From: Candidatus Dojkabacteria bacterium
GTDB lineage: Bacteria > Patescibacteriota > Dojkabacteria > SC72
Length of the DNA stretch: 64,000 nt
NCBI GenBank assembly: GCA_035271645.1
Contig: DATERJ010000018.1
Span: 17,399-81,398, forward strand
Reading direction: 5' to 3'
Both the position numbers and the translations under genes were made by a program. This document shows, in pieces, positions 7,642 to 38,451 of the stretch; within the stretch, counting starts at the first letter, position 1; each line of letters opens with the position of its first letter. The notes beneath the pieces were generated by a model. It made no database searches. It saw only the letters and a program-made list of their open reading frames with translations, and was not told where the DNA came from.

Positions 7642-10600
7642 ATGATTAAGAAAAATAATAGAAAAAAGTTCTTGTTAAGTACTGCTAGTCTTTTTTTGGC
7701 TTTGGGATTGATTTTCTCCGCTGTACAGGATAGTAAGAGAATGGATGATGGAAATAAGAATATCGTTAGCATTAGTGAAGAAGGAGAGGTAAAAGGGGGA
7801 GAGATAATGGCAAACTGTTCATACTACCCATTATGTGATTTTCCAGCAGGACCAGGGGGATGTTATCAAGCAGGTGGATCTTGTGGACCAGGAGAATTCT
7901 CCTGCCCTACAAATCAAAGTGTTTGTTGTGACAGAGGTAGTTGTGGTTCATGTAATCCTTGTACGGGTGTTTATCAAAGTAGTAATAATGGGTGTCCCTC
8001 TACTAGTAAGTCCTGTACCAGATATGACTGTCGTGGGAGTTGCGGCACAACCACTCTCACATGTTATCTCATTCAATACTCCATCAGCTATTCTGCAGGA
8101 AATGGAGGCTCTATCTCAGGGGCAACTAATCAATCCGTGTGTTACAATCAGAGTGGATCACAGGTTACTGCTGTTGCAAATAGTGGATATACCTTCTCCC
8201 AATGGAGTGATGGGAATACATCACCATCGAGAAGTGATGTGGCTACAGGGAATAAAAGTTTTACTGCCAGTTTTACTCAAAGCCCCAACAATCCACCAAC
8301 CACACCTACATCACTACTAACTAATGGACAAACCAATCCTACAAATGTAGATACAGCCACCCCATACTTTAGTGCGATATTTAATGACCCTGATAGTGGA
8401 GATACAGGTGTACACTATCAAATTCAAGTAAATACGAACTCCTCTTTTACTGGGACAACGATGTGGGATAGTGGAAAAACCGCTATGACCTCTACAGCCA
8501 ATGGTTCTAGGAGTCCCAATATTACATACGCAGGTACCAACCTCCCTTTAGATGGAACTATGTACTACTGGAGAATAAAGTTTTGGGATAATAATGGAGC
8601 TGATAGTCCTTGGTCTGCTACTGCACAATTTACTATGCGTTACACAATACCAGCTCCTTCTGGTCTTCTTACTAATGGGCAAACTAATCCAACAGGAGTA
8701 ACTACGCCATACCCATATTTTAGTGCAATATATAATAACTACTCAGGAAGAGGTAATGCTACACATGCACACCTACAAGTTTACTTAGGTAGTGTCCTTC
8801 CAGAAAACCAAGTTTGGAACTTCAATGATGCAATACCCAATGTAGCACCGGGGAACAGAAGTTCAAATATTACATACGGAGGAGATCCACTACCACAAAA
8901 TGGCGCTACATATATTTGGAGAATTAGATTCTGGGATGGGGTGGCCTACTATAGTGAGTGGCAACATGGACAATTCACCATGAATAGTGGAAGTAGTCCT
9001 ACTGCTCCTACTGGCCTTCTAACTAATGGACAAACTAATCCTGTAGGTGTAACTACACCACAACCATACTTTAGTGCAATATTTAATGATCCTAATAGTG
9101 GAGATACTGCTGTGTATTATCAAATCTTTGTTGTTTATTATGATGGTTTTACTTATCAAACTCAATGGGATAGTGGGAAAACTGCTATGACCCCCACCCC
9201 CGTTGGCTCAAGGAGTCCCAATATCACATACAATGGACCAACATTACAAGCAGGTAGAGAATATAACTGGCAAATAAAATTCTGGGATAATTCTGGATTA
9301 GAAGGTGTTTTCTCTAACATTTCTTCAAATCGTTTTACTATGAACACCCCACCTACCGCTCCAACAGCACCATTAACAAATGGGATGACAAACCCAACAG
9401 ATGTAGCCTCCACACCCTACTTTAGTGCTATATTTAACGATGCTGATAGTACAGATACAGGTGTATATTATCAAATCCAAGTCAACACTAATTCCTCCTT
9501 CTCGGGAACAACTATGTGGGATAGTGGAAAAACCGCCATGACAGCCACAAACCCTAGTTCTAGAAGTCCCAATATTAACTATGCTGGGAATACCCTCTCA
9601 TACAATGGAACAACATACTATTGGAGAATTAGGTTCTGGGATAATCATGGGGTAGTTAGTCCCTACTCTTCTACTGCTCAATTCACTACAGTCATATCAG
9701 GCGCTGCGCCCACATCACTTCTAACCAATGGACAAACTAACCCGACAAATGTAGTACCTTCACCAGCACCATACTTTAGTGCAATATTTAATCACAGTAA
9801 TCCAAGTCGTAGAGCAGTACACTATCAGATTATAATGACAGTAAGTGGTATGCAAGTTTGGAATAGTGGAAAAACCTCTATGACCTCTACCGCCCCTGGT
9901 AGTAGATGTCCTAATATTACATACAATGGCTCTCATACCTTAGACCATAATGGAAATGTATACAAATGGACAATTGTCTTCTGGGATGACCTAGGGGTGC
10001 AGACTGCAACCTCAGCAGAAGCACAGTTTACTATGAACAGACGCCCTACTCCACCTACTGGACTACTGACAGAGGGACAAACAAATCCCTCAGGTGTTAC
10101 CGATACAACACCTGAATTTAGTGCGATATATAACAATCCTACTGGAACACCTGCTGTATACTACCAAATTCAAGTAAACGAAAAAGCTAACTTTACTGGT
10201 ACTATGAAATGGGATAGTGGGAAAACTTCAATGGCTTCATTAAGTAATGGCTCAAGAAGCCCAGATATTGAGTATGCTGGTTCTACTCTTACTCAGAATG
10301 GACAAACCTACTTCTGGAAGATTAGATTCTGGGATAATCTGGGAGGTGATGGTGAGTGGTCAGCTGTAAACTACTTCACTATGCACAATAATGCATATAC
10401 CTTTACAATCAGCTCAGAGGGGACACAGGTCAATCCCGTAACAATGGATCGAATAGAGGGAGGTGATGAATTATATATGGGAGGAGTATTTAGTTTTACG
10501 GTGTATAATATTAATCCTGCATTCTCACAGCCGGGAATAACTAGTATTACATTACAAAGAACTTGGACCTCTGGGAGTGGAGATATTGACAGAGCTATTC

Positions 10601-12093: not shown

Positions 12094-12143
12094 CCAATTG
12101 TTATTATTTAATGATTTTGATATACTCTCTACTGTATTGATAT

Positions 12144-12220
12144 GGAGTGGTAGCTCAATTGGTTAGAGCATCGCACTGTCACTGCGAAGGTTGCGGGTTC
12201 GAGCCCCGTCCATTCCGCCA
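12144..12220 (+). tRNA. tRNA-Asp (anticodon GTC), CCA encoded.
   Basis: Cloverleaf read directly: acceptor GGAGTGG/CCATTCC, D-arm GCTC-AATTGGTT-AGAGC, anticodon stem TCGCA/TGCGA with loop CTGTCAC (GTC), T-arm GCGGG-TTCGAGC-CCCGT, discriminator G plus CCA. Coordinates ±1-2 nt. Confidence 0.8.
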
Positions 12221-23247: not shown

Positions 23248-24213
23248 TTGTCACAAAAGAAGAATGTAAATATAAGGTTACCAAAGCAAACTAAAGGTAG
23301 ACACACCATATATATTGATGAGTCAGGAACAGCATCATTAAAAGACAAAGAAAAGTTCTTTATACTCACAGGTGTAATTGCTACCAACCACAGTTTTAAT
23401 GATGTTGAAGAATTCTATTTTAACCTAAAAAGAAAATACTTTGGGTATATTCAACATCTACATTCTGTTGAGCTATTTAGTGAAAATACAAAGTATGTAC
23501 GAAAAAGCAAAGCTCAATTGTTTAAGATAAAGAAATATAGAAAAAGATATATACAAGAATTAGCATACTTTTTAGATACTGTACCATTTGTATTTTTAAC
23601 AATCATAGTTGATAAAGAGAGAATGTTAAAAAGTCTATCACCAGTTAAAATAGATCATCCTTGGGCTACCACAATAGGAGAAGCAAAGAAAATATTTACA
23701 GAGACACACAACGATGAAACTCCTTTTATAGATGCAAAAATTGCAGATGTTATAGATACTATTAATAAACACAAAATACTCCCAACCGACTATTTCAGGC
23801 CACTAAAAATTGCATATAGAGAATTGTTAGAACAATATTTTAAAAACTACCAATACAATATTTATACCACAGGATCAAAGATGCAGATATGTGTAGAATC
23901 ATCTGAGTACCAATCACGAATTTTAAAATACACAGAAGAATTTCTATTGGAAACAGATAGGGTGCAACCGAAACCTAAGAGAACAAAATTTTCGAGAAGA
24001 CTAAAAAACAGTATGTACAGTCTATCCTTTCCTAATAAAAAAGCTAAATTTCTTGGTTTAGAGATAGCAGATATTATCTCATATGGTTATTATCTTTCAT
24101 CACATCATAGAAGGTGTAAGAATGAACTCTATAAAGATATTTGGAAAGTTATTGAGAAAAGAAAGAAGGATATTGAACAGAAATATAATATGAGGTGTGT
24201 AGTTAAGATCTAA
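23248..24213 (+). CDS. DUF3800-family protein.
   Basis: N-terminal HTIYIDESGTAS...FFILTGVI motif characteristic of DUF3800. A second DUF3800 gene is at 35114..35740. Confidence 0.5.
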   Translation: MSQKKNVNIRLPKQTKGRHTIYIDESGTASLKDKEKFFILTGVIATNHSFNDVEEFYFNLKRKYFGYIQHLHSVELFSENTKYVRKSKAQLFKIKKYRKRYIQELAYFLDTVPFVFLTIIVDKERMLKSLSPVKIDHPWATTIGEAKKIFTETHNDETPFIDAKIADVIDTINKHKILPTDYFRPLKIAYRELLEQYFKNYQYNIYTTGSKMQICVESSEYQSRILKYTEEFLLETDRVQPKPKRTKFSRRLKNSMYSLSFPNKKAKFLGLEIADIISYGYYLSSHHRRCKNELYKDIWKVIEKRKKDIEQKYNMRCVVKI

Positions 24214-24250: not shown

Positions 24251-24329
24251 TGTTTGCATTATACAATACTAGATAAAAGAAAAGCAAGAGGTTTTTCTTT
24301 TATGTTTTGATTATATAAAAAGGATAGTA

Positions 24330-25124
24330 TTAAAGCAAAAGAGAAAGCATTTTTAACTGTATATCCCCTATTGTTTTCTCTAATACAAAAGTGTCCTTTT
24401 TTAGTTTCCATATTCTAAATACTTGTATATGGGACATAGATGGGTCATGGATAGATGTTACTAGTTTCTTCTTACCTTTGTTGTCATACAACCTAAAAAA
24501 CATTGGGTGTTCTACTATCCAATTATCTTCTTCGTTTTCTTTAGTGTTAAATGGTACTTTAATAGCTTTACCGTCTTCTAGTTTGTAGATGGTTATACTA
24601 TCCTTAGAACCACTCTCCCATTTCCCAACTACTAGGTATTCGTATTTACTAGATGAATATATGACCATACTTACCTCCCCTTCTATACTCCCTTCTTCTT
24701 CCCATACTTCATACCTTACATTGTCCTCTACTACATTATCGTTGTATTTAAGATTACAACCTTTAGGGTCTCCATATACAATGTTATCTATATCTTCTTT
24801 AGGACAGTTTAGTTCTAGTGTATATTCATCTTTTAATGTCCATATTACATTTACATCTGATTTTTCTTTAGTTAATTGATATTTAGGTTTGTTTACTAAT
24901 TGATCTATTTGTTTATATCCTTCTATATCCTTATTCCAATCATATATATATTTATCTATGTTATATGTTTTCTTTAATTCTTTTAGTTCTAATGAATATT
25001 TCTTTTCAAATGATATTTGTTCTTCTGTTTTTTTATTTATTATATATATGTATATGGATATACATATGATTAGTAGTAGGAGAAATATTATTAGTAATGT
25101 TTTTGGTTTGATGTTTTTTAACAT
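24330..25124 (-). CDS. N-terminally membrane-anchored hypothetical protein.
   Basis: N-terminal TM LLIIFLLLLIICISIYIYII; the rest is hydrophilic with no recognised domain. Confidence 0.4.
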   Translation of the reverse strand: MLKNIKPKTLLIIFLLLLIICISIYIYIINKKTEEQISFEKKYSLELKELKKTYNIDKYIYDWNKDIEGYKQIDQLVNKPKYQLTKEKSDVNVIWTLKDEYTLELNCPKEDIDNIVYGDPKGCNLKYNDNVVEDNVRYEVWEEEGSIEGEVSMVIYSSSKYEYLVVGKWESGSKDSITIYKLEDGKAIKVPFNTKENEEDNWIVEHPMFFRLYDNKGKKKLVTSIHDPSMSHIQVFRIWKLKKDTFVLEKTIGDIQLKMLSLLL

Positions 25125-25240
25125 TGGGTTAGTATGTTAAGTTCAATTAATTTATCATATCATTTTTCCTTCTGTTTCTTCCACTAATTTAATCCACTAA
25201 TTGATATAATAGACTAGCAATAAATTGTGGAACAAGCGTT

Positions 25241-25483
25241 ATGAACGAGGAAAAAATCGAAAAAAACATATCTCCAACATTGAGGAAGTATGTTTTAACC
25301 TTAAGACATGAGTACGGATTCTATTCAGAAGAGGAGCAAAGAGAATTAGTCCTTTGGGGTGAGAAAGCCCCTGAGGTAGTACTCAGTTTAGCTCAGAACT
25401 TAGTCATGGACAGAGATAGAACTCATCTCAACCACGGAAGAGAATACAAGTGTATCCTAGTCAGTTTAACAAGACAAGAGTAA
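25241..25483 (+). CDS. Small hypothetical protein (80 aa).
   Basis: ORF only; sits at the edge of the R-M island. Confidence 0.25.
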   Translation: MNEEKIEKNISPTLRKYVLTLRHEYGFYSEEEQRELVLWGEKAPEVVLSLAQNLVMDRDRTHLNHGREYKCILVSLTRQE

Positions 25484-25566
25484 TTTAGACAAAGATGCAA
25501 AAACTTTGCCCTGTTTTTAGTGACCTTAATAGATTCCTACTATTAACAATACTGGTACTACATGAA

Positions 25567-26277
25567 CTAAGTTACTACAGAAAACATTTCCAATTTCTCT
25601 TTCCTCTCTTCCCAGTCAGGACACTGCTTAGTTAATAATCTATAAAAATCTTTATCATGTCTCTTGTGCTTCATATGACATAATTCATGAGTAATAACAT
25701 AATCTATACAACTAGTAGGTGCTTTGATTAAATCGATATTCAAATATACTTTTTTATTACTAAGAAAACTACCCCACCTTTTACTCATTTTACGAATATC
25801 TAATACAGGGGTAAATTTATAAGAAAAAGACTTAAGTACCTCTTTATACCTTCTACGAAAAACTATTTCTGCTCTTTCAGAATACCATTTTGACAACAAA
25901 TTCTTATTATGAGAAGAATTACAAACTTCTTTCTTTGTTCTTAGTTCTATAACTCCTTTCTGCAATTTCACAGATTCTTCTTTGCTTTTCTTAACCTTTA
26001 ACTTGTATTGCCTGCCCAAATAATAAAAACTTTCTCCTGATATATAATCCTTCTTATACTTTTTCCCGTTATACTTATCAAAATACCTTATCTGCTTCTC
26101 CATCCAAGACCATTTTCTCTTTAAAAATTTCTCTATCTCCTCTTCCTTTGCCTTTAGTGGAGCTTTAACAACAAGAGATTTATCTGGTTTTACAACCAGA
26201 CTTATCGTCTTCCTCTTACTTTTGAATAGAGAATACTCATATGAGTATTTCCCATAATTAAAAACCTTAGACTTCAT
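25567..26277 (-). CDS. YgjP/DUF45-family (M48-like, WLM/SprT-related) zinc metallopeptidase.
   Basis: HExxH motif ITHELCHMKHKRHDKDF near the C-terminus. It lies directly downstream of hsdR, a known association. Confidence 0.7.
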   Translation of the reverse strand: MKSKVFNYGKYSYEYSLFKSKRKTISLVVKPDKSLVVKAPLKAKEEEIEKFLKRKWSWMEKQIRYFDKYNGKKYKKDYISGESFYYLGRQYKLKVKKSKEESVKLQKGVIELRTKKEVCNSSHNKNLLSKWYSERAEIVFRRRYKEVLKSFSYKFTPVLDIRKMSKRWGSFLSNKKVYLNIDLIKAPTSCIDYVITHELCHMKHKRHDKDFYRLLTKQCPDWEERKEKLEMFSVVT

Positions 26278-26280
26278 TTC

Positions 26281-29200
26281 TTACAAAATTTCATAATTAT
26301 TTTGTGCAAGAGTCATTATTTTCTCAATAAGATCCCATATGTCTTCATTACTTAAATCAACCCCTCTACCTATTTTCACCACATCGTAAAGATAATCATC
26401 TAATTCATTCCTCATCATCCTTTTCTTCTCAGAGTTTATCTGCCAATCAATTACTGCTTCTCTTTTTAGAATCCCAAATATTTCCAAACAACTAACGATG
26501 ATACAATCCTCATCTAGCCCATGCTTTTTAAAATCTCCCCTTAGATTCCTATAAAAGATATCAACCCCTTCATTTGATTTTATTATATCTGGTAAATCTT
26601 CATCCTCTTTGTTAAGTACTTGTCTACTAAGTTCCTTTGCCTGTTTCAAAGCCTCAATATCAGCCAATTTCTTCTCCCTCATTGCCTGAAGCAAAGCATC
26701 TATCTTGTCAGAGAATTTTCTGTAAAACTTTGGATCTTTCCCCATCCTCTCAGAAACTTCTTTCTGTGTTTGTGAGAGAATCGCAGCCGCTTTAGATTTA
26801 TCTGAACCCAAATCCTCTACAGCCTCCTTAAAAGCTTCCTCATCTGTTATTGAAATCTGTGTTGTTAGTAACTCCGCTTCTTCTGCTTTAATATTTTTAT
26901 CCAAAATATTAATCAAGGCCTGTTTGTATTTCTTAAAATCGGGGGCATCAGAGTATCTAATACTGGCTGTTTTCCTAAGATTTGTATATTTCTTAAGATC
27001 CAACTTAAACATATCAATCTTGTCAAAACTGTCTACAAACTCTTTAAGAATAATACACTCATTAAAGATTCTGATAAAAGCATTTAAATCCTCATAGAAT
27101 CCCTTCCTTACCTGCTCATCTTCTAAATGCTCTAAGTATGCCTCATCATCTTCAGGAACATCTTTGAAAGTATCATATAATTTTTCATACTGTGCTTCTA
27201 ACTCCTCTATCTTCTCATCAACATCAATCAAAGTCCCTTTAACATCCTCGTCATCATAGTTACCAAATAAATCCATAGCCGTTTTAAGATTTTTTGCATT
27301 TTCAGAGTAGTCTATGATATATCCTGCTGTTTTCGGTAAGACATCATTTTCAAACAAACGATTTACTCTAGCTATTGCTTGAAGTAGGTTATGATCCTTC
27401 AGTTCTCTGGCTAAATACAAAACTGTGTTTCTCGGAGCATCAAAACCAGTAAGTAGTTTATGAACAACTATCAAAATTTCAACACCATCTTCATTATATT
27501 TAAAACTATCTATAACTTCTCGTTCATAAGATTCTAAACTTTGATATTTACCTTTTATCTCTCTCAGGTATTCTTCAACCTCTTTCTTATGACTATCCTC
27601 ATAACTACTAATTTCATTTTCATCTGATATTACTAATGCAGTATTTATATCTGATTCATTCTGGAAATATCTTTGGAATAATGTTGCTGCATATTTAGAA
27701 GGTGCAACAATCTGAGCTTTAAGTCCAGTTCCTTTTAGGTGCTTGTTAAAATGCTCCTTGATATCATACCCTATCTCAACAATCCTCGCAGGTGTTTCCT
27801 GCATAGCCTTTGTTTCGATCTCTCTCTGTATATCTCGCATGGTAAAGTTATCCTTTTTTAATTCTTCCTCCAATCGTGCTACCTGTTTATCAATCTCCTT
27901 TTCATCCTGTCGCAAATCAACATATCGACCTTCATAAATCAAAGGAAGAACAATACCGTCATTTAAAGCATCATCTATTGTATATCTATCTATAAATCTG
28001 CCAAACTGATTCTCAGATTTCTTTTCCTTAAGAATTGGAGTACCTGTAAAACCAATGTAACAAGCATTAGGTATAACTCTATTCATCTCTAGGTTAGCTT
28101 CTCCTCCCTGAGATCTATGTACCTCATCTATTAACACAAATATATTTTTATCCTTATCTACAAATCCAGCTCGTATGTCTTTTGCTGCTTGGAACTTGAA
28201 TACTAATGTTGTAATCACATCTGGGGTTTTCTCCTTAATCTTTTTTAATAAATCTTTCCCACTTTTCGCTTTCTTTATCTCTTTCTTAAGACCTGCATTC
28301 TCAAAAGTTTCTTTGATTTGCTGATCTAAATCTCTTCTGTCTGTGACAATAAAGATTCTTGGATTCTCTATCTCAGGATCTTCAATTAAGGCTTTGACAA
28401 ACATAACCATTGTTAAAGATTTACCTGAACCTTGTGTTTGCCAAAGAATACCTCCCTCTCTTCTTTCTCCATGTTCTGTTTTCTCTATATTCCTTATCCT
28501 ATTCAATGCTCTCTTGATTGCAAAGAACTGTTGGTATCTCATAACTTTCTTCACACCAGCATCATAAAGTATGTGATTCTTAGAGATATCTAACAATCTC
28601 TCTTTTCTTAACATACCATATACTCCTCTATCTTGTTCAGAAACTTCTCTGTTAGTTTTTTGTTGATGACCATATGTTTGTCCATTTAAATCTTTCAATA
28701 TTTGAGTGTAAAGGGAGTTGTCTATCTCTTTTGATATAACTCTTGTTATTTCATCATCAAACTCCTTCTTAAATTGTTTTCTGTTCTTCCATTCCTCTTC
28801 AGCAATATCTCTTTCCTGCCATTTTGCATAGAAATTGTTTGGTGTTCCTGTTGTTCCATATCTAAAATCTATTTTGTTTGATGCTATTAAAAGCTGAGGG
28901 TAGATAAAGAGTTTAGGACATCTATCTGGACTCTGATTTCTATTCTGTTGAGTTATTGCGAACTCTACTTCCTTGGAAGATTTTTTGTTTTCAATAACAA
29001 CAAAGGGTATACCATTAACAAATATAACTATGTCTGGTCTAATTGTTGATTTACCTGTAGCTTCAAATTCGACTATAAAGGAGAAGTCATTGTTTTCTAT
29101 ATTATCGAAATCTATAAATCTGAAACTTTTTGATTCATATTTACCATTGTGGAAAACTTTTATTGTTTTCCCTCCTTTTTTAGGCATTATTGTTTGATAT

Positions 29201-29475
29201 ATCTTTTTAGATGTATCTATTATTCCTTCCAAAGGAATATTTTCGAGTTCTTCTATAGCTTCTATTATATTTTTATCACTAAAGATTTCTTCTGTTGCAT
29301 TATTTATTCTCTTTAATGATTCAAATGCTGTGTCTTTGAGTATGAACTTATTAGTATCTCCTCTTCTTTCTTCCATTACCTCATTTACAGGTATGTATCT
29401 GTAACCCATGTTTACTAACATTTCTACAAATGGTAGTTGTGATTGTTTTACTTCATCAAAATCTATATCTGTCAT
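26281..29475 (-). CDS. hsdR: Type I restriction enzyme R subunit.
   Basis: 1064 aa. Helicase motif I ILWQTQGSGKSLTMV, motif II VLIDEVHRS, and the N-terminal nuclease region with IVIFVNGIPFVVIENKK (PD-(D/E)xK). Confidence 0.9.
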   Translation of the reverse strand: MTDIDFDEVKQSQLPFVEMLVNMGYRYIPVNEVMEERRGDTNKFILKDTAFESLKRINNATEEIFSDKNIIEAIEELENIPLEGIIDTSKKIYQTIMPKKGGKTIKVFHNGKYESKSFRFIDFDNIENNDFSFIVEFEATGKSTIRPDIVIFVNGIPFVVIENKKSSKEVEFAITQQNRNQSPDRCPKLFIYPQLLIASNKIDFRYGTTGTPNNFYAKWQERDIAEEEWKNRKQFKKEFDDEITRVISKEIDNSLYTQILKDLNGQTYGHQQKTNREVSEQDRGVYGMLRKERLLDISKNHILYDAGVKKVMRYQQFFAIKRALNRIRNIEKTEHGERREGGILWQTQGSGKSLTMVMFVKALIEDPEIENPRIFIVTDRRDLDQQIKETFENAGLKKEIKKAKSGKDLLKKIKEKTPDVITTLVFKFQAAKDIRAGFVDKDKNIFVLIDEVHRSQGGEANLEMNRVIPNACYIGFTGTPILKEKKSENQFGRFIDRYTIDDALNDGIVLPLIYEGRYVDLRQDEKEIDKQVARLEEELKKDNFTMRDIQREIETKAMQETPARIVEIGYDIKEHFNKHLKGTGLKAQIVAPSKYAATLFQRYFQNESDINTALVISDENEISSYEDSHKKEVEEYLREIKGKYQSLESYEREVIDSFKYNEDGVEILIVVHKLLTGFDAPRNTVLYLARELKDHNLLQAIARVNRLFENDVLPKTAGYIIDYSENAKNLKTAMDLFGNYDDEDVKGTLIDVDEKIEELEAQYEKLYDTFKDVPEDDEAYLEHLEDEQVRKGFYEDLNAFIRIFNECIILKEFVDSFDKIDMFKLDLKKYTNLRKTASIRYSDAPDFKKYKQALINILDKNIKAEEAELLTTQISITDEEAFKEAVEDLGSDKSKAAAILSQTQKEVSERMGKDPKFYRKFSDKIDALLQAMREKKLADIEALKQAKELSRQVLNKEDEDLPDIIKSNEGVDIFYRNLRGDFKKHGLDEDCIIVSCLEIFGILKREAVIDWQINSEKKRMMRNELDDYLYDVVKIGRGVDLSNEDIWDLIEKIMTLAQNNYEIL

Positions 29476-29480
29476 ATTCC

Positions 29481-30701
29481 TTATTTATTATTTTTAAATT
29501 TAGGTAATCTAATATTTCCTGTTACTAGGTTATTTATTAGGTATTTTCTTTGTTGTTCCATTAGAGTTTTTTTATTTTCTAATAGTTCTATTTCTTTGTT
29601 GGATTGGGTGAGGATTCTTACTATTTCTTTTTGTTCTTGGAGAGGAGGAATAGTTACAGACATCTTCCTTAAATCACTACCATAAAGATGAACGATTGTT
29701 ATCCCTTGTGCAAGTCGAGCCATGTCTAATTTCTTAGCATATGAAAGATAGTATGCTAGAAATTCACCATCAATATCTTTCTTAGGTCTAAATATATTAA
29801 TATCTCCCCCTAATAAAACATCATCTCTCATTAAACAAGATGCTGTTGCAACATCTAAAGCATTAGTTGTTGTAGATGCTGGAACTAGAACATCACCTTT
29901 AACTGATCGGACTCCTTCACTAATGTTCGTACGACTAGATACTTCATCTATTATATCACCGTATGTTGTATATAACTCACCATACAATATACATTCTTCT
30001 TGTCCATTGTCATCTAATACTGCTTTAGAAAGACCACGACCTTTTAACACACTTACTATGTCTCCTAGTCGATGTTCCTTAAGATAATCTTTTTTAATTG
30101 TTTTATATGAGAGTAGATTTTGTATTAGATATTTTTCAACATTTTTCTTTACTTCTATCTTTTTATCTAAGAGTTCTATGTATTTATCCCATTTTTCTAT
30201 AGTAGATACGATTTCTTTTTGTTCTTCAATAATGGGAGTGTTTATCTTGAAATTACCTATTAAATCTAAAGTCAACTGTGGCTGTGCGCTACCGAATACT
30301 GCTTTGGTTACTTCTCTTGCAAACAAAGAAGAACCCATAAATAATTGTAGATATCTAGTATCTAGACTTTCTTCCATATTACGAATAATAACCATTCCAG
30401 AATTGATTCTTATATGAGAAAATGTAACATCATCACCATAATATGCAAATCTCCCAACTGTCCCTCTAGTTGTTAAGACCAGATCTCCCCTGAACAACTT
30501 ACCATTACCCATCAAGTTGTCTTTCTCTAAAGAAATAAACTTTGTATGAGAGAAATCAAAAGTACCTTCTTGAATATTGTCTGCACTCAGAAATACACAG
30601 TCTCCGTTCTCGGACAAATCATCACTCTTAGGATAGTTTTTCCCCCTGTCCCCATCAATAATTTTTATATTTAAATCTCTTAACTTTTTTCTACAAAACA
30701 T
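29481..30701 (-). CDS. hsdS: Type I R-M specificity subunit with two target-recognition domains.
   Basis: 406 aa. The conserved coiled-coil regions IIEEQKEIVSTIEKWDKYIELLDKKIE and IPPLQEQKEIVRILTQSNKEIELLENKK each repeat once, one per TRD. Confidence 0.85.
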   Translation of the reverse strand: MFCRKKLRDLNIKIIDGDRGKNYPKSDDLSENGDCVFLSADNIQEGTFDFSHTKFISLEKDNLMGNGKLFRGDLVLTTRGTVGRFAYYGDDVTFSHIRINSGMVIIRNMEESLDTRYLQLFMGSSLFAREVTKAVFGSAQPQLTLDLIGNFKINTPIIEEQKEIVSTIEKWDKYIELLDKKIEVKKNVEKYLIQNLLSYKTIKKDYLKEHRLGDIVSVLKGRGLSKAVLDDNGQEECILYGELYTTYGDIIDEVSSRTNISEGVRSVKGDVLVPASTTTNALDVATASCLMRDDVLLGGDINIFRPKKDIDGEFLAYYLSYAKKLDMARLAQGITIVHLYGSDLRKMSVTIPPLQEQKEIVRILTQSNKEIELLENKKTLMEQQRKYLINNLVTGNIRLPKFKNNK

Positions 30702-31822
30702 ATTTCTCTAATATCCCTTTTTAAATTATCTGATTCTCCCTGAACCTTCCCCACCATTCTCTTAGCTCTCTCTAATACATGGTCATAAGTTAGTATACTA
30801 ATATTTTGATAGGTTGAGTTTAATACTCTATACATTTTCTTTTCTTCATCATTCCATTCAATATTTCTACCATATATCAAGGTAATTTTAGGTTTTAATA
30901 ATGTATACCCACCTAATTTCTCAAGATACTCGGCATCATTTATCTTCTTCTCTATTTCTACAAGATACTTCATACATTGTACAGTTGCTTTTGTTAGATT
31001 TGCTGTTGGACATGTATCAGAGGTCCAAAAACTTGAACTCGGCAATTTTAACTCTACAATATCTACAAAACCATCATAAGATTGTAGTAAATAATCTGTG
31101 ATATCATCTTCATCAATATTACGATGATCTAACATTTCCACATATTCCGCACCTAATATCCACTTGTTTTCCTTGAAAAACCTTTGCCAAACCTCTTCAT
31201 CTTTACCAACTCCAAGTTCATTCTTGTATTTTTCAAATTCCGCCTCATCATTCAAGATTTTCTCAAATCTATCGACTGCCCTTTTCCTGTGAGTTATATC
31301 TTCAAGATCACCATACTGAAGTAAATTGAAATTTCTTACAATCTCTGTAAGTTTTTCTTGACCAACAGGATCTTTAACAACTAAATCCAAGAACTTCTTT
31401 AATTCTTCAGGGTTTTCGATGATTGACTTATCCAACATCAAAGTTCTATTTGCAATCGATTCCAAATCCAAATTTGAAAACACATGTAGTAACTGCAAAA
31501 TCCTCTCAAAAGCAAGTGTCGAAAAATGTATCTTTTCCAACCTTTTATTAGACAACTTTGAGATTTCCACTCCATCTATTTTCTTAGAGTTTGTTAAATA
31601 TGTCACTCTTAAACAAATTTTAGGAGATATTTTAATTTTTATATCTTCACCTTCAGAATCTGGGCAATCAGTTACTGAGATATACTTGCCTTCGCCACTA
31701 GCAAAGTCAGCTACATATATAACCCCATTCTTCTTATTTTCTAAAATACTCTCCTCCGAAGTATCAAAAGGTTCTATTCCTGTATAAGCATTATCCATTT
31801 TCAGAATAACTTTTAAACTCAA
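30680..31822 (-). CDS. Embedded PD-(D/E)xK nuclease-like protein, Shedu/DUF4263-like, between hsdM and hsdS.
   Basis: C-terminal region ...ILGAEYVEMLDHRNIDEDDITDYLLQSYDGFVDIVELKLPSSSFW has a D...D..E.K core. Its ~380-aa size and position in the operon resemble single-gene defense nucleases. The start overlaps hsdS by 22 nt and the stop abuts hsdM. Confidence 0.4.
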   Translation of the reverse strand: MSLKVILKMDNAYTGIEPFDTSEESILENKKNGVIYVADFASGEGKYISVTDCPDSEGEDIKIKISPKICLRVTYLTNSKKIDGVEISKLSNKRLEKIHFSTLAFERILQLLHVFSNLDLESIANRTLMLDKSIIENPEELKKFLDLVVKDPVGQEKLTEIVRNFNLLQYGDLEDITHRKRAVDRFEKILNDEAEFEKYKNELGVGKDEEVWQRFFKENKWILGAEYVEMLDHRNIDEDDITDYLLQSYDGFVDIVELKLPSSSFWTSDTCPTANLTKATVQCMKYLVEIEKKINDAEYLEKLGGYTLLKPKITLIYGRNIEWNDEEKKMYRVLNSTYQNISILTYDHVLERAKRMVGKVQGESDNLKRDIREICFVEKS

Positions 31823-31823
31823 C

Positions 31824-33341
31824 TTAACTAATCCCCAAATCCTTAAGACATTCTTTCATCTCTTTCTCTAATCTCTTAAGTTCTGGTTCTATATCTTCTA
31901 ATTCTTTCAAATTAGCTTTAATATCTACTGGTTCCTCCTCCTCAAATGTATCTACATACCTAGTAATATTAAGATTAAAATCATTCTCCTCTATCTCATC
32001 AGGATTAACTACCCTCGCGAACTTCTCAACATCTTTTCTTGCAACATAGGTATCATAAATCTTCTGTATATTCTCATCAGATAATGTATTCTTAGGAGAA
32101 CCTGCTACAAACTCCTTAGATGCTTCTATAAAGAAGATATCTTTCCTATCTTCATTCTCACCACCCTCTTCTCTAGATCTATCTATAATTAGTAAAACAA
32201 CAGGTATATCCGTTGTTTGAAATAACTTTCCTGGTAAACCAATAACAGCATCAATAATATTCTCTTCTATAAATCTTCTTCTTATCTTTCCTTCTGCCCC
32301 ACTTCTAAACAAAACACCATGGGGTACAACTATTACAGCTCTACCAGATTTAGGTTTTAATGTCTCAACTGCATGAGTAATGAAAGCATAATCTCCATTC
32401 CCTTTTGGTGGAATACCTCTAAAGAACCTATTGTATTTATCACCCTCAGCATTCTCAGCTCCCCATTTATCTAAAGAATATGGAGGATTTGCTACGATAA
32501 TATCAAACTTCATTAACCTATCATTCTCTACCAATTGAGGATTGTTTAATGTATCACCCCATTCAATTCTTGCATCATCTTTACCATGAAGAAACATATT
32601 CATTCTACATAATTGATATGTACTACCTTTTGATTCCTGCCCATACAATGCATAGTCCTTAGAACCACTCTCTTCAACTTCTTTACCTGCTAGTAGGAGC
32701 ATACCTCCAGAGCCACATGCAAAATCCGCTATCCTATCACCCTTTTTAGGTTGTGCAAGTTTAGCTACAATTTTAGAAATTTGAGTAGGAGAAAAGAATT
32801 CTCCTGCTTTTTTACCTGCATCTGCTCCAAACCTCTCAATCATGTACATATATGCATTACCCATAACATCATCATCTACATCTGTTAAATCTATCTTTGC
32901 AAAATCTTTAATCAAATTCCTAATCATCTTGTTTCTCTCCTCTAACTTTCCTAATACTGCTTCTGAATTGAAATCTACACTAAATACTCCTCCTAACTTT
33001 GCTTCATTAGCATCTTCTATCTTAGCAAGTACCTTGTTCAATTCTTCTCCAATATTATCCTCTTCCATAATGCTGTAAATGTAGTCAAAAGATGTATTTG
33101 GAGGAAGATAGAATCTATCAAGTTTCATTTTTGCCTCTATTCTTTCCTTATCATTAGCAAATCTCTCTTTATATTCTTCCCTCTTTTTATTTGATAAATC
33201 ACTAAGATATTTGAAGAACAACATAACTAAAACATAATCCTTGTATATACTGGCATCTACTGCTGTCCTAGATGAGTCTGCAGCTGCCCAAAGAACTTTA
33301 TTAAGTTCTTCTTGTGAATATTTCTTGGTGTTTCTTGCCAT
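31824..33341 (-). CDS. hsdM: Type I R-M N6-adenine DNA methyltransferase subunit.
   Basis: N-terminal HsdM helical domain, FADFACGSGGMLL (motif I) and VANPPYS (motif IV). Confidence 0.9.
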   Translation of the reverse strand: MARNTKKYSQEELNKVLWAAADSSRTAVDASIYKDYVLVMLFFKYLSDLSNKKREEYKERFANDKERIEAKMKLDRFYLPPNTSFDYIYSIMEEDNIGEELNKVLAKIEDANEAKLGGVFSVDFNSEAVLGKLEERNKMIRNLIKDFAKIDLTDVDDDVMGNAYMYMIERFGADAGKKAGEFFSPTQISKIVAKLAQPKKGDRIADFACGSGGMLLLAGKEVEESGSKDYALYGQESKGSTYQLCRMNMFLHGKDDARIEWGDTLNNPQLVENDRLMKFDIIVANPPYSLDKWGAENAEGDKYNRFFRGIPPKGNGDYAFITHAVETLKPKSGRAVIVVPHGVLFRSGAEGKIRRRFIEENIIDAVIGLPGKLFQTTDIPVVLLIIDRSREEGGENEDRKDIFFIEASKEFVAGSPKNTLSDENIQKIYDTYVARKDVEKFARVVNPDEIEENDFNLNITRYVDTFEEEEPVDIKANLKELEDIEPELKRLEKEMKECLKDLGIS

Positions 33342-33350
33342 TTTAATTTT

Positions 33351-33929
33351 TTAAAAATTTAATTTCTTAACAGCATAATTAAGAATATTTTCATTAATAT
33401 CCTTCTTCCTATCTAAAAGATCTTTCTGTTTAACAATATTATCATACAAAGAGATGATTCTTTTTTGATATTCGATATCTGGGACTGGTATATTTAATCT
33501 TTCTAATTGGCTTTTAGAAATTCCTTTTATATATGCTCCAATACTTATTTTCTCTAATTCCTTCTGACCTTCAGGAGAGGAGAGATATATTGCTAAATAC
33601 TTTGGAATTAGTTTTTTGTTATTTACTCTGACAACTAGAATGGATGATGTTGCTATTGCATCGAGGTTTTCATCAAAGTAACCCACAGTCGAATTACCTT
33701 TTGAGGCTACTAATACATCCCTTTTCTTAAGGAAGGCAAGGGTTTCTAGGTCATCTGTATCAACTTTCTGTAAAGATTCTAGATCAAAATTGATAGAATT
33801 AGGAAGTAAATCTTGAGATTGAATTACCAGTGTTTTTCCTTGGGGCATTTTAGCAACAGACATTCTAAATGAGTATCCTGACAATATATCTGCTACTTGA
33901 TTTAGTCTATATCTCTCTATCATACACAC
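33351..33929 (-). CDS. Half-size HsdS (single target-recognition domain) upstream of hsdM.
   Basis: 192 aa. One TRD plus the conserved HsdS helix ISKSQLERLNIPVPDIEYQKRIISLYDNIV... Confidence 0.65.
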   Translation of the reverse strand: MCMIERYRLNQVADILSGYSFRMSVAKMPQGKTLVIQSQDLLPNSINFDLESLQKVDTDDLETLAFLKKRDVLVASKGNSTVGYFDENLDAIATSSILVVRVNNKKLIPKYLAIYLSSPEGQKELEKISIGAYIKGISKSQLERLNIPVPDIEYQKRIISLYDNIVKQKDLLDRKKDINENILNYAVKKLNF

Positions 33930-33961
33930 ATTATAGCACAGGTGTTTAAATTTGTCAAGCC

Positions 33962-34981
33962 CTACCTCCCTACTGTCCCCAAAACCACCCTCTCACATAA
34001 TTCTTCAAATGATATACCTACTACCATAGCTTCCTGTGGTAATAAACTAGTAGGAGTCATACCAGGTAATGTATTAGCTTCTAAACAAAAAAATTTGTTT
34101 TTTGTATCACTAAGTAAAAAATCTATCCTAGAATAACTACCTAAACCCAATACATTATGTACTCTTAATGCAATACTCCTTACCTCTTTTTCTTTCTCTT
34201 GGGTTAAGTTACTAGGACAAACCTCAATACTAGCTCCCTTCTGATACTTGTTCTTGTAATCATAGAAACCTTTCTTAGGTATAACCTCAATACTAGGTAA
34301 CACCTCCCCATTCAATATACCTACAGAAAACTCCCTACCCTTAATATACTCCTCAAGAAGAATATCATCAGAATACCTCCTAGCCTCTCTAACAGCATCA
34401 TCTAACCCATCCTTACTTCTTACTATCCTAACCCCTACACTAGAACCACAATCCAATGGTTTAACTACACAAGGAATATCAAACTTAGGTATCTCTGCTC
34501 CCTTCTTAACTACAACATACTTAGGAGTAAGAATACCATTCTTAACAAACACATCCTTACTCTTACCTTTATCCATAGCTAACATAGAAGATTTAGAATC
34601 ACTACCTGTATATCTAATACCTAAATCTTCAAATATTTTCTGTAACTTACCATTCTCTCCAATATCACCATGTAATCCTAAAAATACAACATCACTATAC
34701 TTACATATCTCTAATACATTCTTCCCTATCTTCTCACTACCATATATCTTTTCTAATTCTTTTAAATCAGGTTCATTCTTAGGTACTACATATTTAAATG
34801 GTTTACCACCTTTCTTAAACAACTTAGATATACCACCCTTAGGAATATCACAACCTAAATACAGATCTAACATACATACACTATGATTATTCTTTAACAA
34901 AGCATTCCCTATTAAAGCACCAGAAGACAGAGATACATCTCTCTCAGGACTAAGACCACCACATAGTACTACAATATTCAT
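33962..34981 (-). CDS. ddl: D-alanine--D-alanine ligase.
   Basis: MNIVVLCGGLSPERDVSLSSG N-terminus; ATP-grasp motifs (FLGLHG..GENG, CVVKPLDCGSSVGV, EANTLPGMT). Confidence 0.85.
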   Translation of the reverse strand: MNIVVLCGGLSPERDVSLSSGALIGNALLKNNHSVCMLDLYLGCDIPKGGISKLFKKGGKPFKYVVPKNEPDLKELEKIYGSEKIGKNVLEICKYSDVVFLGLHGDIGENGKLQKIFEDLGIRYTGSDSKSSMLAMDKGKSKDVFVKNGILTPKYVVVKKGAEIPKFDIPCVVKPLDCGSSVGVRIVRSKDGLDDAVREARRYSDDILLEEYIKGREFSVGILNGEVLPSIEVIPKKGFYDYKNKYQKGASIEVCPSNLTQEKEKEVRSIALRVHNVLGLGSYSRIDFLLSDTKNKFFCLEANTLPGMTPTSLLPQEAMVVGISFEELCERVVLGTVGR

Positions 34982-35113
34982 AGTTAGAGTATATATTATT
35001 TCTATACAACACTCACCTAAAATATGGTATAATGTATATAGAGTGATTTAGTGTCGAATTGTTGCCATTATGGTATGCGTTTCTGAGAAATCAGAATAGG
35101 CACTAAATCCATT

Positions 35114-35740
35114 CTATTTCATCACACAAACATCTATAACCTTTTTCCTTATCACTTCTAGATATATATCACTATCATTTCTTCCCCTCTCTAAAGATTT
35201 GTATATACTACCAACAACCATATCAACAACTTGTATCATCGGTTCACTCCTAGAATCTACATATTTAACCCCTGAGATATATTTATCTTTATATTTCCCA
35301 TTCAACCCCCTTATTTCAGAATTAATAGCTCTTTTCATTTCTCTCTCTTTCTTACCATCTACCACTAGTTTCGCAGAATCTAACAAATGAAGATTCTTTG
35401 TTAGTAATTGTCTAAAAAAGTAATTGTAATAATCATGTTTATTCTTTATGACAACATGAGAAAAGTACGAGTTCTTATCAACCACTAAACACACAACTCT
35501 CATATCAAAATCTTTTACAAGAGAAAGAAATTTCAGCCTTAACTCTTTGTTCGCCTTTCGAAACTTAAATTCAAAACAATCACTTTTTCCTAGTGATTTC
35601 TTAAATCTCACAACCTCCCTCCTACTCTTTTCTACTACCGATTTAGAATTAAAGAGAATCATACATAGCACAAAGAAAGGACTAGAACCCTTATCTAGCT
35701 TAATACCTGGATCTCCTGATTCATCTATGAAAACAATCAT
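35114..35740 (-). CDS. DUF3800-family protein, second copy.
   Basis: N-terminal MIVFIDESGDPG...FFVLCMILF; same family as 23248..24213. Confidence 0.5.
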   Translation of the reverse strand: MIVFIDESGDPGIKLDKGSSPFFVLCMILFNSKSVVEKSRREVVRFKKSLGKSDCFEFKFRKANKELRLKFLSLVKDFDMRVVCLVVDKNSYFSHVVIKNKHDYYNYFFRQLLTKNLHLLDSAKLVVDGKKEREMKRAINSEIRGLNGKYKDKYISGVKYVDSRSEPMIQVVDMVVGSIYKSLERGRNDSDIYLEVIRKKVIDVCVMK

Positions 35741-35826
35741 AGGTGAATTCTAGCACTAAGCCTTCCTAAAGGTATTAAGAGTTAATTAAAACAGGTCTAT
35801 AATGATGAAAACATCTTTATTCCTAT

Positions 35827-36351
35827 ATGCTATACTATCCTATGCCCAATCTACTAATATATATATTAATATTAATCCCCATACTCCTTGTACTAACCAT
35901 TCTCTCATCATTATCAAACAAAGGTCGTCTAAACAAAAATCTAAAAGCATATACATATACAAGAAAACCATACATCATGACCAAAGGAGAAAATGAATTC
36001 TTTCAAGTACTAACCAAAATACTTCAAAACAAATATTACATATTTCCTCAAATACACCTAACAACATTCCTAGAACACAAAGTAATGGGACAAACATGGA
36101 AAGGTGCTAAAGCTCATATAGATAGATTATCTGTAGACTATGTAATATGTGATAAGAAATATCTCTCTCCCATGATCGCAATCGAATTAGATGACTCTAC
36201 ACATAACAGAGGGGATAGGATTGTAAGAGATACAGAAGTAGAAAGAATATTACAAGAAGCTAAAGTACCACTAATTAGAATCCCATATACTGATAGATTT
36301 AAGGAAGAAGAGATTAAAGAGAAAGTTTTTCAATATCTCAAATCTAACTAA
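35827..36351 (+). CDS. DUF2726-family protein (PD-(D/E)xK / NERD-like) with an N-terminal membrane anchor.
   Basis: TKGENEFFQVL...IFPQIHL...HIDRLSVDYVICDKKYLSPMIAIELDDSTHNRGDRIVRD...KVPLIRIP matches the DUF2726 core. N-terminal TM LLIYILILIPILLVLTIL. Confidence 0.65.
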   Translation: MLYYPMPNLLIYILILIPILLVLTILSSLSNKGRLNKNLKAYTYTRKPYIMTKGENEFFQVLTKILQNKYYIFPQIHLTTFLEHKVMGQTWKGAKAHIDRLSVDYVICDKKYLSPMIAIELDDSTHNRGDRIVRDTEVERILQEAKVPLIRIPYTDRFKEEEIKEKVFQYLKSN

Positions 36352-36363
36352 TGAAAAGGAATA

Positions 36364-37386
36364 CTACTCAATCACCCCACCACCTACAATGTAGTCATTG
36401 TCATAGAATACTACTGATTGACCAGGTGTAATAGCTCTCTGAGGTATATCAAATACTACCTTTACTTTATTATCACTCACAGGAAATATTGTACAACCTG
36501 CTTCCTTAGCCCCATACCTAATCTTAGCAGTAACCCTCATCTCCTTCTCTAACTTCTCAAACATAATCCAATTAAGATTACTAGCTACTAATGTATCACC
36601 TAATGTATCCTCATCATCACCTAATACAATAACATTCCTCTTAACATCAATGTCTACTACAAACAGAGGTTTGTTACTTGCAATACCCAAACCCTTCCTC
36701 TGTCCTACAGTATAGTTGTATACACCACTATGCTCACCTAATACATTCCCATTAACATCTACAAACTTACCATTAGGCATCTTCTTCTTAGTAGTGCTTT
36801 CAATGAAGCCAACATAGTCGTTATCTTCGATAAAGCATACCTCCTGACTATCCTCCTTCTCTGCAACAAACAAATCATTCTCCTTAGCTATCCTCCTTAC
36901 CTCCTCTTTCTCCATCCCCCCTATCGGAAACAATATCCTAGATAGTTGTTCTTGTGTAAGTCTGTAAAGAAAATATGCTTGATCCTTACCACTACTCTTC
37001 CCTTTCTTAAGAAGATATCTACCATCCCTCTCCTCTATCTGTGCATAATGACCAGTAGCAATATATTCAGCACCTAAGTCCATAGCTCCATCTAGTAATG
37101 CACTAAACTTAATCTCCTTGTTACATACCACACATGGATTAGGTGTTCTTCCTGCCAAATATTCATCTACAAAATATTTCATAACCTTTTCCTTAAAGAT
37201 ATCTCTAAAATCAAAAACATTAAATGGAATATCTAACTTCTTAGCTATCTTTCTAGAATCCTCTACAGCTTTCTCTGTTTGATATATTTCCATAGTACCA
37301 CCTATGACATCATATCCTTGTTGTTTAAGAAGAAGTGCAGCTACAGAACTATCTACACCACCACTCATTGCTATTAATACTTTCAT
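36364..37386 (-). CDS. mnmA: tRNA-specific 2-thiouridylase.
   Basis: PP-loop MKVLIAMSGGVDSSVAALLL, the CxxC region PNPCVVCNK and GHYA. Confidence 0.85.
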   Translation of the reverse strand: MKVLIAMSGGVDSSVAALLLKQQGYDVIGGTMEIYQTEKAVEDSRKIAKKLDIPFNVFDFRDIFKEKVMKYFVDEYLAGRTPNPCVVCNKEIKFSALLDGAMDLGAEYIATGHYAQIEERDGRYLLKKGKSSGKDQAYFLYRLTQEQLSRILFPIGGMEKEEVRRIAKENDLFVAEKEDSQEVCFIEDNDYVGFIESTTKKKMPNGKFVDVNGNVLGEHSGVYNYTVGQRKGLGIASNKPLFVVDIDVKRNVIVLGDDEDTLGDTLVASNLNWIMFEKLEKEMRVTAKIRYGAKEAGCTIFPVSDNKVKVVFDIPQRAITPGQSVVFYDNDYIVGGGVIE

Positions 37387-37485: not shown

Positions 37486-38451
37486 ATGAAAATAGTTTTA
37501 AATAATGCTAAATATGAAAAAGCTAATTTTGCTAATGAGCAAGAATTAGAAGATGCTGTTCTTAAACATTCCAAAGAGATATTTGGAGAAGACTGCCTCT
37601 ACATCTCTGTCAAAAGAAGAATTCAAAATCAAAGGAATAGTTTCATTAATATCCCTGATGCATACGTAGTTGATTTTAGGGGAAGACCAAAACTTTGGGT
37701 TGTTGAGAACGAACTTTCTACACATGATTCCTTTAAACATATTGGGATACAAATGCTTCAGTTTGCATCACAATTTACAGAAGGTTCTTTTCAAGTTAAA
37801 ACAATTCTTTTAGAAGCCATAAATGGTGATAAAGGATTACTTGAGAAAGCAAATACTCTAACAAAGAAAATTAAATATCCAAATATAGGGGCAGTTCTGG
37901 ACTATGCAATATTTAGAAATGATTTTGGTTTTATCATTGTAATAGATGATATTAATGAAGACTTACGTAGTGTAACACAAGAGCTAGCAAGACAACCAGA
38001 ATTACTACAAATACAAAAATATGTATCTACTGACAAGAAAGAAGTTATGTATGCTTACGAAGAACTACTTAGTGATGTTGTTGAATCTACATCTGCATGG
38101 GTTGCTGATATGGATGATATTGATACCATTGTTGCCCCTGCAAGAGAAGAAGGATTTAAGAGAGTTTTCCTAGGAGAGAAGGAATGGTATTCGATAAAGA
38201 TTGCCTCTTCAGTAATTCCAAGATTGAAATATTTAGCAATGTATGAAGTTGCTCCTGTTAGTGCCATTAGGTGGATTGGTAAAATTGAATCTATTCAACC
38301 ATATGAAGACACTGGGAAATACAAGATCATTCTTTCGGATATAAAAGAGATTCCTCCAATTAAACTAGGACACCCAAGATATACACCATATGGACATAGA
38401 TATACTACATTTGAGCTATTAATGAAAGCGAAAACCTTAGGAGATTTGTAA
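37486..38451 (+). CDS. Hypothetical protein; possible N-terminal nuclease-like motif.
   Basis: IPDAYVVDFRGRPKLWVVENELSTH (D...E.E pattern). Weak support. Confidence 0.3.
   Translation: MKIVLNNAKYEKANFANEQELEDAVLKHSKEIFGEDCLYISVKRRIQNQRNSFINIPDAYVVDFRGRPKLWVVENELSTHDSFKHIGIQMLQFASQFTEGSFQVKTILLEAINGDKGLLEKANTLTKKIKYPNIGAVLDYAIFRNDFGFIIVIDDINEDLRSVTQELARQPELLQIQKYVSTDKKEVMYAYEELLSDVVESTSAWVADMDDIDTIVAPAREEGFKRVFLGEKEWYSIKIASSVIPRLKYLAMYEVAPVSAIRWIGKIESIQPYEDTGKYKIILSDIKEIPPIKLGHPRYTPYGHRYTTFELLMKAKTLGDL

Follow-up and report, generated by a model that had tools for sequence, protein, structure and literature searches.

A 64,000-nucleotide stretch of Candidatus Dojkabacteria DNA, here called the window, carries a gene (30680-31822, minus strand) whose product is, on the evidence of its sequence, a type 1 Shedu nuclease (SduA) with intact catalytic motifs and predicted activity. 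The gene lies inside a type I restriction-modification (R-M) operon, between hsdM and hsdS, and belongs to a clade of sduA genes that recurs in type I operons almost wherever it is found. Both the gene and its arrangement are already on record. The exact protein is deposited in GenBank as HKM20254.1 under the name Shedu SduA, with HKM20255.1, a type I R-M subunit M, as its neighbour, and the paper of Gu et al. (2023, PMC10441436; later Mol Cell 2025) counts 602 of 5,499 Shedu genes within R-M systems of types I-IV and 87 more within BREX. Since the protein is already labelled and R-M-embedded Shedu genes, those in type I systems included, have been counted, no novelty attaches to the arrangement, which the preliminary description of this DNA had taken to be undescribed; ours is a correct annotation of a documented kind and not a new system. 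Only two observations go beyond the literature consulted, namely the linkage of the clade as a whole with type I R-M and a C-terminal tail, present in most relatives, that resembles the tip of SSB, the protein that binds single-stranded DNA.

Membership of the product in the Shedu (SduA) family is secure. Pfam SduA_C (PF14082) covers residues 207-349 with 70.6 bits where the gathering score is 27; the E-value is 2.2e-19, and 157 of the 159 positions in the profile are aligned. In addition, 19 PADLOC SduA models match the protein (best E=1.2e-61), with PDLC00392 spanning residues 19-359. A Foldseek search with the predicted structure retrieves the solved SduA structures 8ti8 and 8ti9 at E about 4e-7 to 9e-7, the match lying in the fold of the nuclease domain. 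The Shedu/DUF4263 identity that had been proposed from the letters of the DNA is therefore borne out by profile and by structural comparison, whereas an NCBIfam search of the protein gave no match. With 236 homologues at E<=1e-3, the top 120 of them 51-69% identical over ~90% of the length, the 380-residue reading frame is far beyond a chance open reading frame.

The active site could be assigned by aligning a profile of 44 homologues with Bacillus cereus SduA (8ti8/8ti9) and also with Escherichia coli SduA (8ps4). Residues E209, D243, E257, K259 and Q282 align to E204, D249, E264, K266 and Q295 of the B. cereus protein, which are its catalytic residues in the numbering of Gu et al. (PMC10441436), and a complete PD-(D/E)xK active site is present, with E in motif I, D in motif II, ExK in motif III and Q in motif IV. 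All five residues are invariant in the 44-sequence clade alignment. In a larger alignment of 116 sequences from two subfamilies, which adds a 22-29% identical sister family from Bacteroidota, E209, D243, E257 and Q282 still show no variation, and the conservation of K259 is 90% or more. The nuclease core had initially been read from the string YDGFVDIVELK, which is indeed present at residues 249-259, as a D..D..E.K motif. The E.K part of that motif (E257/K259) stands, but the two aspartates do not: position 254 can be D or N among clade members, and across the wider family both D250 and D254 show variation. The motif II aspartate is D243, which lies 14 residues upstream of E257 in the preceding beta-strand. 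The parts of the gene are as follows.

30743..31207, minus strand: C-terminal DUF4263 / PD-(D/E)xK nuclease domain of SduA, residues 206-360 (Pfam SduA_C, profile alignment to 8ti8)
31196-31198, 31094-31096, 31052-31054, 31046-31048 and 30977-30979, minus strand: catalytic codons of E209, D243, E257, K259 and Q282, respectively
31208..31462, minus strand: helical linker of SduA, ~residues 121-205 (AF2 helices 132-203)
31463..31765, minus strand: N-terminal beta-rich domain of SduA, ~residues 20-120, a putative sensor (AF2 model)

As in other type 1 proteins, an N-terminal regulatory region stands before the nuclease; it comprises ~205 residues, and conservation within the clade is as high over residues ~20-205 as in the nuclease domain. 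An exhaustive phmmer search with residues 1-205 against 1.84 billion representatives gave 58 clusters, and the match was always N-terminal. Full-length proteins among these matches (>320 amino acids; n=35, 322-411 amino acids) carry SduA_C in 35 of 35 cases, one of them also matching Pfam SduA_N, and the other matches are shorter proteins. Judged by these matches, the N-domain is restricted, among the proteins found, to the N-terminus of SduA_C proteins. The family profile of the N-domain proteins aligns to residues 137-378 of B. cereus SduA, that is, to linker and nuclease (E=2e-33).

Structure prediction gave an uneven picture of this region. A first AF2 model, built from 44 close homologues, had a predicted local distance difference test score (pLDDT) of 60, falling below 50 in the N-domain; a second, to which 59 sister-family sequences from Bacteroidota had been added, reached a pLDDT of 73 with 80-97 in the nuclease domain. 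The second model is of a monomer. The N-domain is modelled as six beta-strands followed by a helix (~35-117) at a pLDDT of ~50-80, and any fold class given to it is tentative, since the first ~65 modelled residues are unreliable. The only hint of a fold, and a weak one, is a Foldseek match of the N-domain with Pur-alpha repeat III, which has a probability of 0.98 and an E of 0.15. The fold of that repeat is Whirly-like, a fold that Gu et al. (PMC10441436) tie to type 1A Shedu. As to whether the N-domain is of class 1A (sPC4/Whirly-like) or 1X, the observations are this weak match and the single Pfam SduA_N match among the 35 relatives.

The reading frame between hsdM and hsdS was confirmed, as were its flanks by Pfam, although its two ends had been reversed in the preliminary description: it is the start that abuts hsdM and the stop that overlaps hsdS. 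The hsdM stop codon TAA (31824-31826) is followed by one spacer base and then by the TTG start of sduA at 31822, which has GGGGA 9 nucleotides upstream; GenBank uses an alternative start, the in-frame ATG of codon 9 (31798), for its 372-residue product. At the other end the sduA stop codon TAA occupies 30680-30682 and the ATG of hsdS lies at 30701, giving a 22-nucleotide overlap. Pfam shows hsdM, hsdS and hsdR co-oriented in one cluster, as in a type I R-M operon. All six genes of the cluster are on the minus strand with intergenic gaps of at most 10 nucleotides.

33930..33958, minus strand: promoter-like site TTGACA-17-TATAAT with 12/12 matches to the sigma-70 consensus and a TG that extends the -10 element, directly upstream of the half-size hsdS
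33351..33929, minus strand: half-size hsdS that opens the operon and encodes 192 amino acids with a single target-recognition domain (Pfam Methylase_S E=1.4e-12)
31824..33341, minus strand: hsdM, type I N6-adenine DNA methyltransferase subunit (505 amino acids; Pfam N6_Mtase E=6e-100, HsdM_N E=2e-23)
30680..31822, minus strand: sduA, Shedu nuclease (380 amino acids from TTG 31822; 372 amino acids from ATG 31798)
29481..30701, minus strand: hsdS, full-length specificity subunit (406 amino acids; Pfam Methylase_S E=2e-36 over two stretches)
26281..29475, minus strand: hsdR, restriction/translocase subunit (1064 amino acids; Pfam HSDR_N, SWI2_SNF2, ResIII, T1R_D3-like)
25567..26277, minus strand: YgjP-like metallopeptidase, last gene of the cluster (Pfam YgjP-like E=3e-56)

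The promoter-like site is the sole perfect match within 25000-35200. The number of such sites in this interval equals the shuffled expectation, so that this one stands out by position and quality alone; around sduA, where site counts likewise equal the shuffled expectation, no conspicuous internal promoter or terminator was found. Given the tight junctions and one perfect promoter before the half-size hsdS with no comparable site inside, the simplest reading is that the genes from the half-size hsdS to the YgjP-like gene form a single six-gene operon and that sduA is transcribed with the type I genes from one promoter.

Two features of the operon recur in related loci. The order of a half-size hsdS followed by hsdM is seen again in L001, L003, L081 and L086, and the extra half-size hsdS implies two specificities for one HsdM. 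Phase variation of hsdS was considered and set aside, as there are no inverted or long direct repeats between the half-size and the full-length hsdS, only the usual internal HsdS repeat. A YgjP-like gene, which encodes a WLM/SprT-related zinc metallopeptidase, lies directly 3' of hsdR here and recurs in L001, L003, L004, L009, L013, L081 and L086; it accompanies hsdR in at least seven related loci despite their different type I families, a conserved association.

We then turn to the distribution of the clade. The best 120 homologues are 345-382 amino acids long and are mostly named from metagenome-assembled genomes of Patescibacteria. While a single-sequence scan of GTDB genomes detected no relatives, an alignment-based rescan of species representatives gave 20 loci with full-length relatives at 42-61% identity, and their neighbouring genes were annotated with the HsdM, HsdS, HsdR and YgjP proteins of the window as queries, together with Pfam. 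A co-oriented type I operon encloses sduA at 18 of these 20 species-level loci; of the exceptions, L019 has sduA following a D12 Dam-like methyltransferase gene, and in L015 the contig ends at the gene. Further long metagenome contigs were type I-embedded in four out of four cases, bringing the count to 22 of 24 independent contexts, and every contig of sufficient length carries HsdR. Among distant SduA loci, which share similarity in the nuclease domain only, type I genes occur within 8 kb in 3 of 60.

The association is not tied to one kind of type I system. The slot that sduA occupies varies between M-SduA-S-R, M-S-SduA-R and R-M-SduA-S, and the partner R enzymes come from different type I families (EcoEI_R_C versus T1R_D3-like/EcoR124_C). 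Compared with the window proteins, SduA is 48-61% identical, HsdM 25-76%, and HsdR 24-63% or undetectable. Because SduA is conserved while its HsdM and HsdR partners are diverse and the R families differ, the clade sduA has moved between type I families and kept the association. The type I operons of relatives often hold further cargo as well (L002, L004, L005, L008, L009, L010, L085 and L086), including RhuM, Bro-N, Fic/DOC, AAA_21 with RloB, AAA_13 and DUF3892, and the type I operons of Patescibacteria seem to bear a heavy load of accessory genes.

The Bacteroidota sister family, with 786 matches, extends this picture. In locus L024 its SduA gene lies in a type I operon. Systems other than type I also have sister-family sduA placed between their methylase and specificity modules: in L023 (4799-9128) it overlaps the end of a gene for an MmeI-like type IIG methyltransferase-endonuclease, and in L026 (6053-9968) it has an N6_Mtase/MmeI_Mtase gene on one side and, on the other, a separate gene for Type_ISP_C specificity. 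In the sister family the common neighbour is an HsdM-like N6-adenine methyltransferase module; from L023, L026 and the clade locus L019 together, the neighbour in common is an N6-adenine methyltransferase and not HsdR.

A contig from another sample (L081), about 93-98% identical across the region, carries the same operon and allows a comparison between strains. The SduA proteins are 99% identical apart from the tail, as the last ~24 sduA codons and both target-recognition domains of hsdS differ in L081, with a breakpoint at window position 30753. The target-recognition domains of the full-length hsdS are 37% identical between the two alleles and their flanks 94-98%; the replaced segment runs from 29616 to 30753 in the window and from 11046 to 12153 in L081, with the conserved central hsdS segment 30127-30231 left in place. 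The pattern resembles a recombination event that exchanged the specificity and had one breakpoint inside sduA. In L081 a 17-nucleotide gap separates sduA and hsdS in place of the 22-nucleotide overlap. Since both the C-terminal tail of the window SduA and the overlap differ in L081, they would be by-products of the swap, and the translational coupling that had been read from the overlap rests on a strain-specific feature.

The tail is of interest for another reason. The closest homologues end in [IVL]PF in 65 of 120 cases, typically as ...E-I-N-P-E-D-I-P-F or DDDIPF; the tail sequences come from homologues P0006-P0120 and from L003, L004, L006, L008-L010, L012, L018, L021 and L022. Two more distant SduA proteins, from Solirubrobacterales and Eubacterium, have the endings DDIPF and DDLPF. 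No such tip is seen in the window protein, which ends in DIREICFVEKS (30680-30750 compared), or in its nearest relatives. E. coli SSB has a C-terminus that ends in DDDIPF, and we take the [IVL]PF tail of the clade homologues to be the same acidic tip as that of bacterial SSB. The Gu et al. preprint makes no mention of an SSB-like tail of Shedu, and a literature search for Shedu together with SSB was without result.

How such a protein may work can be approached from the two SduA proteins of known structure. B. cereus SduA (PDB 8TI8/8TI9, type 1A) shares the three-part layout of N-domain, helical linker and DUF4263 nuclease and is of nearly the same length (382 amino acids versus 380 here), with motifs I-IV aligning residue for residue. 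The two proteins are only about 17-21% identical, however, and the N-terminal ~120 residues have no sequence match, apart from the weak hint of a PUR/Whirly-like fold. The B. cereus protein, which has been studied as a stand-alone gene, unlike the type I-embedded clade described here, is kept in an auto-inhibited state by the N-terminal domain and the linker (Gu et al., PMC10441436). E. coli SduA recognises free DNA ends (Loeff et al.; PDB 8PS4/8PS5), but its end-sensing N-terminal clamp has no detectable sequence counterpart here, so that end sensing by the clade SduA is an analogy only.

We lean, with slightly more confidence than doubt, towards the view that the window SduA is an auto-inhibited, probably tetrameric Shedu nuclease that is expressed together with the type I enzyme and forms a second layer acting independently of it. 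The protein, with its N-terminal beta-rich sensor domain, helical linker and DUF4263 nuclease, would be made from the operon promoter and would be switched on by a DNA structure associated with infection, for example free DNA ends or single-stranded DNA, whereupon it would nick or cut DNA. A self-contained second anti-phage layer of this sort, autonomous from the R-M enzyme, would profit in a type I operon from co-regulation and co-transfer, and each system would cover escape routes of the other. The role of second-line effector suggested in the preliminary description is thus plausible. Characterised SduA proteins defend without an R-M partner, TgvAB of Vibrio cholerae protects on its own although it lies in a type I operon, and the decoupled conservation of SduA and HsdM, together with the variable slots, argues against a specific co-evolved contact between the two.

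Several observations weigh against this independent role. The N-terminal ~130 residues do not align to either solved SduA in profile searches of the PDB, and the trigger proposed above is a guess, because the N-domain is without a sequence match to the solved proteins and is modelled at moderate confidence. Moreover, embedding in 22 of 24 contexts far exceeds both the ~11% of Gu et al. (602 of 5,499, in R-M systems of any type) and the 3 of 60 of distant SduA, and among the 24 contexts no clade member clearly stands alone, though Shedu has been described as a single-gene system. Such near-exclusive embedding fits a functional dependence on R-M at least as well as it fits co-location. As near-obligate embedding is unusual for a 'single-gene' system, two readings in which SduA depends on the type I enzyme deserve weight.

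In the first of these, SduA would be a coupled second stage of restriction. HsdR cuts unmethylated DNA at random distant sites, and SduA would load on the resulting ends, nick or degrade the fragments and block repair or recombinational rescue; without cleavage by HsdR it would have little substrate. Besides the contrast between 22 of 24 and 3 of 60 contexts, the presence of HsdR on every sufficiently long contig and the recognition of free DNA ends by E. coli SduA speak for this reading, as does the suggestion of Gu et al. (PMC10441436) that Shedu may complement R-M or BREX. The persistence of the linkage over several type I families is also what would be expected if SduA depended on DNA ends and not on protein contact. 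Somewhat against a strict dependence on HsdR are the sister-family genes beside MmeI-like type IIG and ISP-like modules (L023, L026) and the clade member beside the D12 methyltransferase (L019); in addition, characterised SduA proteins need no R-M partner for defence, and end sensing by the N-domain of the clade is argued by analogy. On balance we consider a coupled second stage unlikely. Functional studies of a Shedu inside a type I operon were not found in literature searches for DUF4263 with hsdM and for Shedu with hsdR.

The second reading takes its model from PrrC, and the wider record of embedded defence genes bears on it. Payne et al. (bioRxiv 2024) list 17,432 genes that lie within BREX, DISARM or type I R-M systems, in a main text that does not include Shedu, and cite PrrC as almost exclusively type I R-M-embedded; in Vibrio cholerae, TgvAB is a type IV system in a type I operon that protects on its own. 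Like sduA, prrC and tgvAB are unrelated defence genes co-transcribed among hsdM, hsdS and hsdR, and the R-M-embedded Shedu genes of Gu et al. show the same arrangement, a Shedu gene inside an R-M cluster. The main text of Gu et al. gives counts only and singles out neither a near-always-embedded clade nor the distribution in Patescibacteria nor the slot between hsdM and hsdS. By analogy with PrrC, SduA would be silenced by the type I complex and freed as a toxic abortive-infection nuclease when Ocr, ArdA or an Stp-like protein disables that complex. The usual position right after hsdM mirrors that of prrC, the N-domain is exclusive to this SduA family and could be a dedicated docking module, and an HsdM-like N6_Mtase module is the neighbour that this family has in common with its sister family. 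Yet SduA (48-61%) is far more conserved than HsdM (25-76%) and switches type I families, which is a weak argument against a specific inhibitory interface. PrrC, moreover, is an anticodon RNase under the control of an ABC-ATPase, and TgvAB is a type IV system of the GmrSD-like kind, whereas SduA is a PD-(D/E)xK DNA nuclease with no similarity to either; searches of the window SduA with Pfam and PADLOC for the ABC-ATPase and anticodon-nuclease domains of PrrC found none, the matches being to SduA models only. We regard a guard function of this kind as distinctly improbable.

That sduA is passive cargo or a decaying gene, without relation to R-M or inactive, type I operons being no more than hot spots where mobile defence genes insert, is very improbable. 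In favour of this reading are the RhuM, Bro-N, Fic, AAA_21 with RloB and AAA_13 genes in the same slots of relatives, the thousands of embedded genes of Payne et al., and the 3' tail of the window sduA, which has been overwritten by the hsdS allele swap. Against it, the protein has kept every catalytic residue and its full-length fold without a frameshift, it shares 99% identity with its counterpart in the related strain outside the swapped tail, and the type I linkage of the clade is far above that of other SduA.

The surroundings of the operon were also compared with L081. The flanks at 34994-36364 and 24290-25561 do not align to that contig. In the former, the window has a 208-residue DUF3800 gene (35114-35740, minus strand) and a DUF2726 (Vsr/restriction endonuclease-like) gene (35827-36351), where L081 has one DUF3800 gene of 320 residues; the DUF3800 gene of the window adjoins an Rfam DUF3800-IX RNA motif (35045-35113, plus strand; 53.8 bits against a gathering score of 36.8). 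In the latter, 3' of the YgjP-like gene, the window has a 264-residue reading frame without a family match, where L081 has DUF6994 and others. A second DUF3800 gene lies on the other side of the R-M island (23248-24213, plus strand). The flanks of the R-M operon resemble the cargo slots, variable in content, of a defence island. A 321-residue reading frame without a Pfam match (37486-38451, plus strand), between mnmA and suf genes, is kept in L081 (3451-4416). Elsewhere in the window, 7642-12220 holds a gene whose 1,483-residue product contains Listeria-Bacteroides repeats as well as six Rha78A-like Ig repeats, and then tRNA-Asp (12144-12220), right after which the GC content drops from ~40% to ~29-31% and stays low until ~25 kb; this drop may mark an island boundary.

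Altogether, we put forward, tentatively and as a possibility that we hold with more doubt than confidence, that the Patescibacteria-centred clade of SduA does not act autonomously from a single gene but is a dedicated accessory nuclease of HsdM-type (N6-adenine) R-M, processing ends made by restriction or guarding the methyltransferase complex, and that most of its members, the window protein not among them, are wired to the SSB network through the C-terminal ...(D/E)(D/N)IPF tip. Such a tail, if functional, would suggest a new regulation or localisation of a Shedu nuclease. Being found nearly always in type I operons and yet hopping between unrelated type I families, the clade is a clean natural test case for the question of whether embedded defence genes act independently of restriction, synergise with it or guard it.

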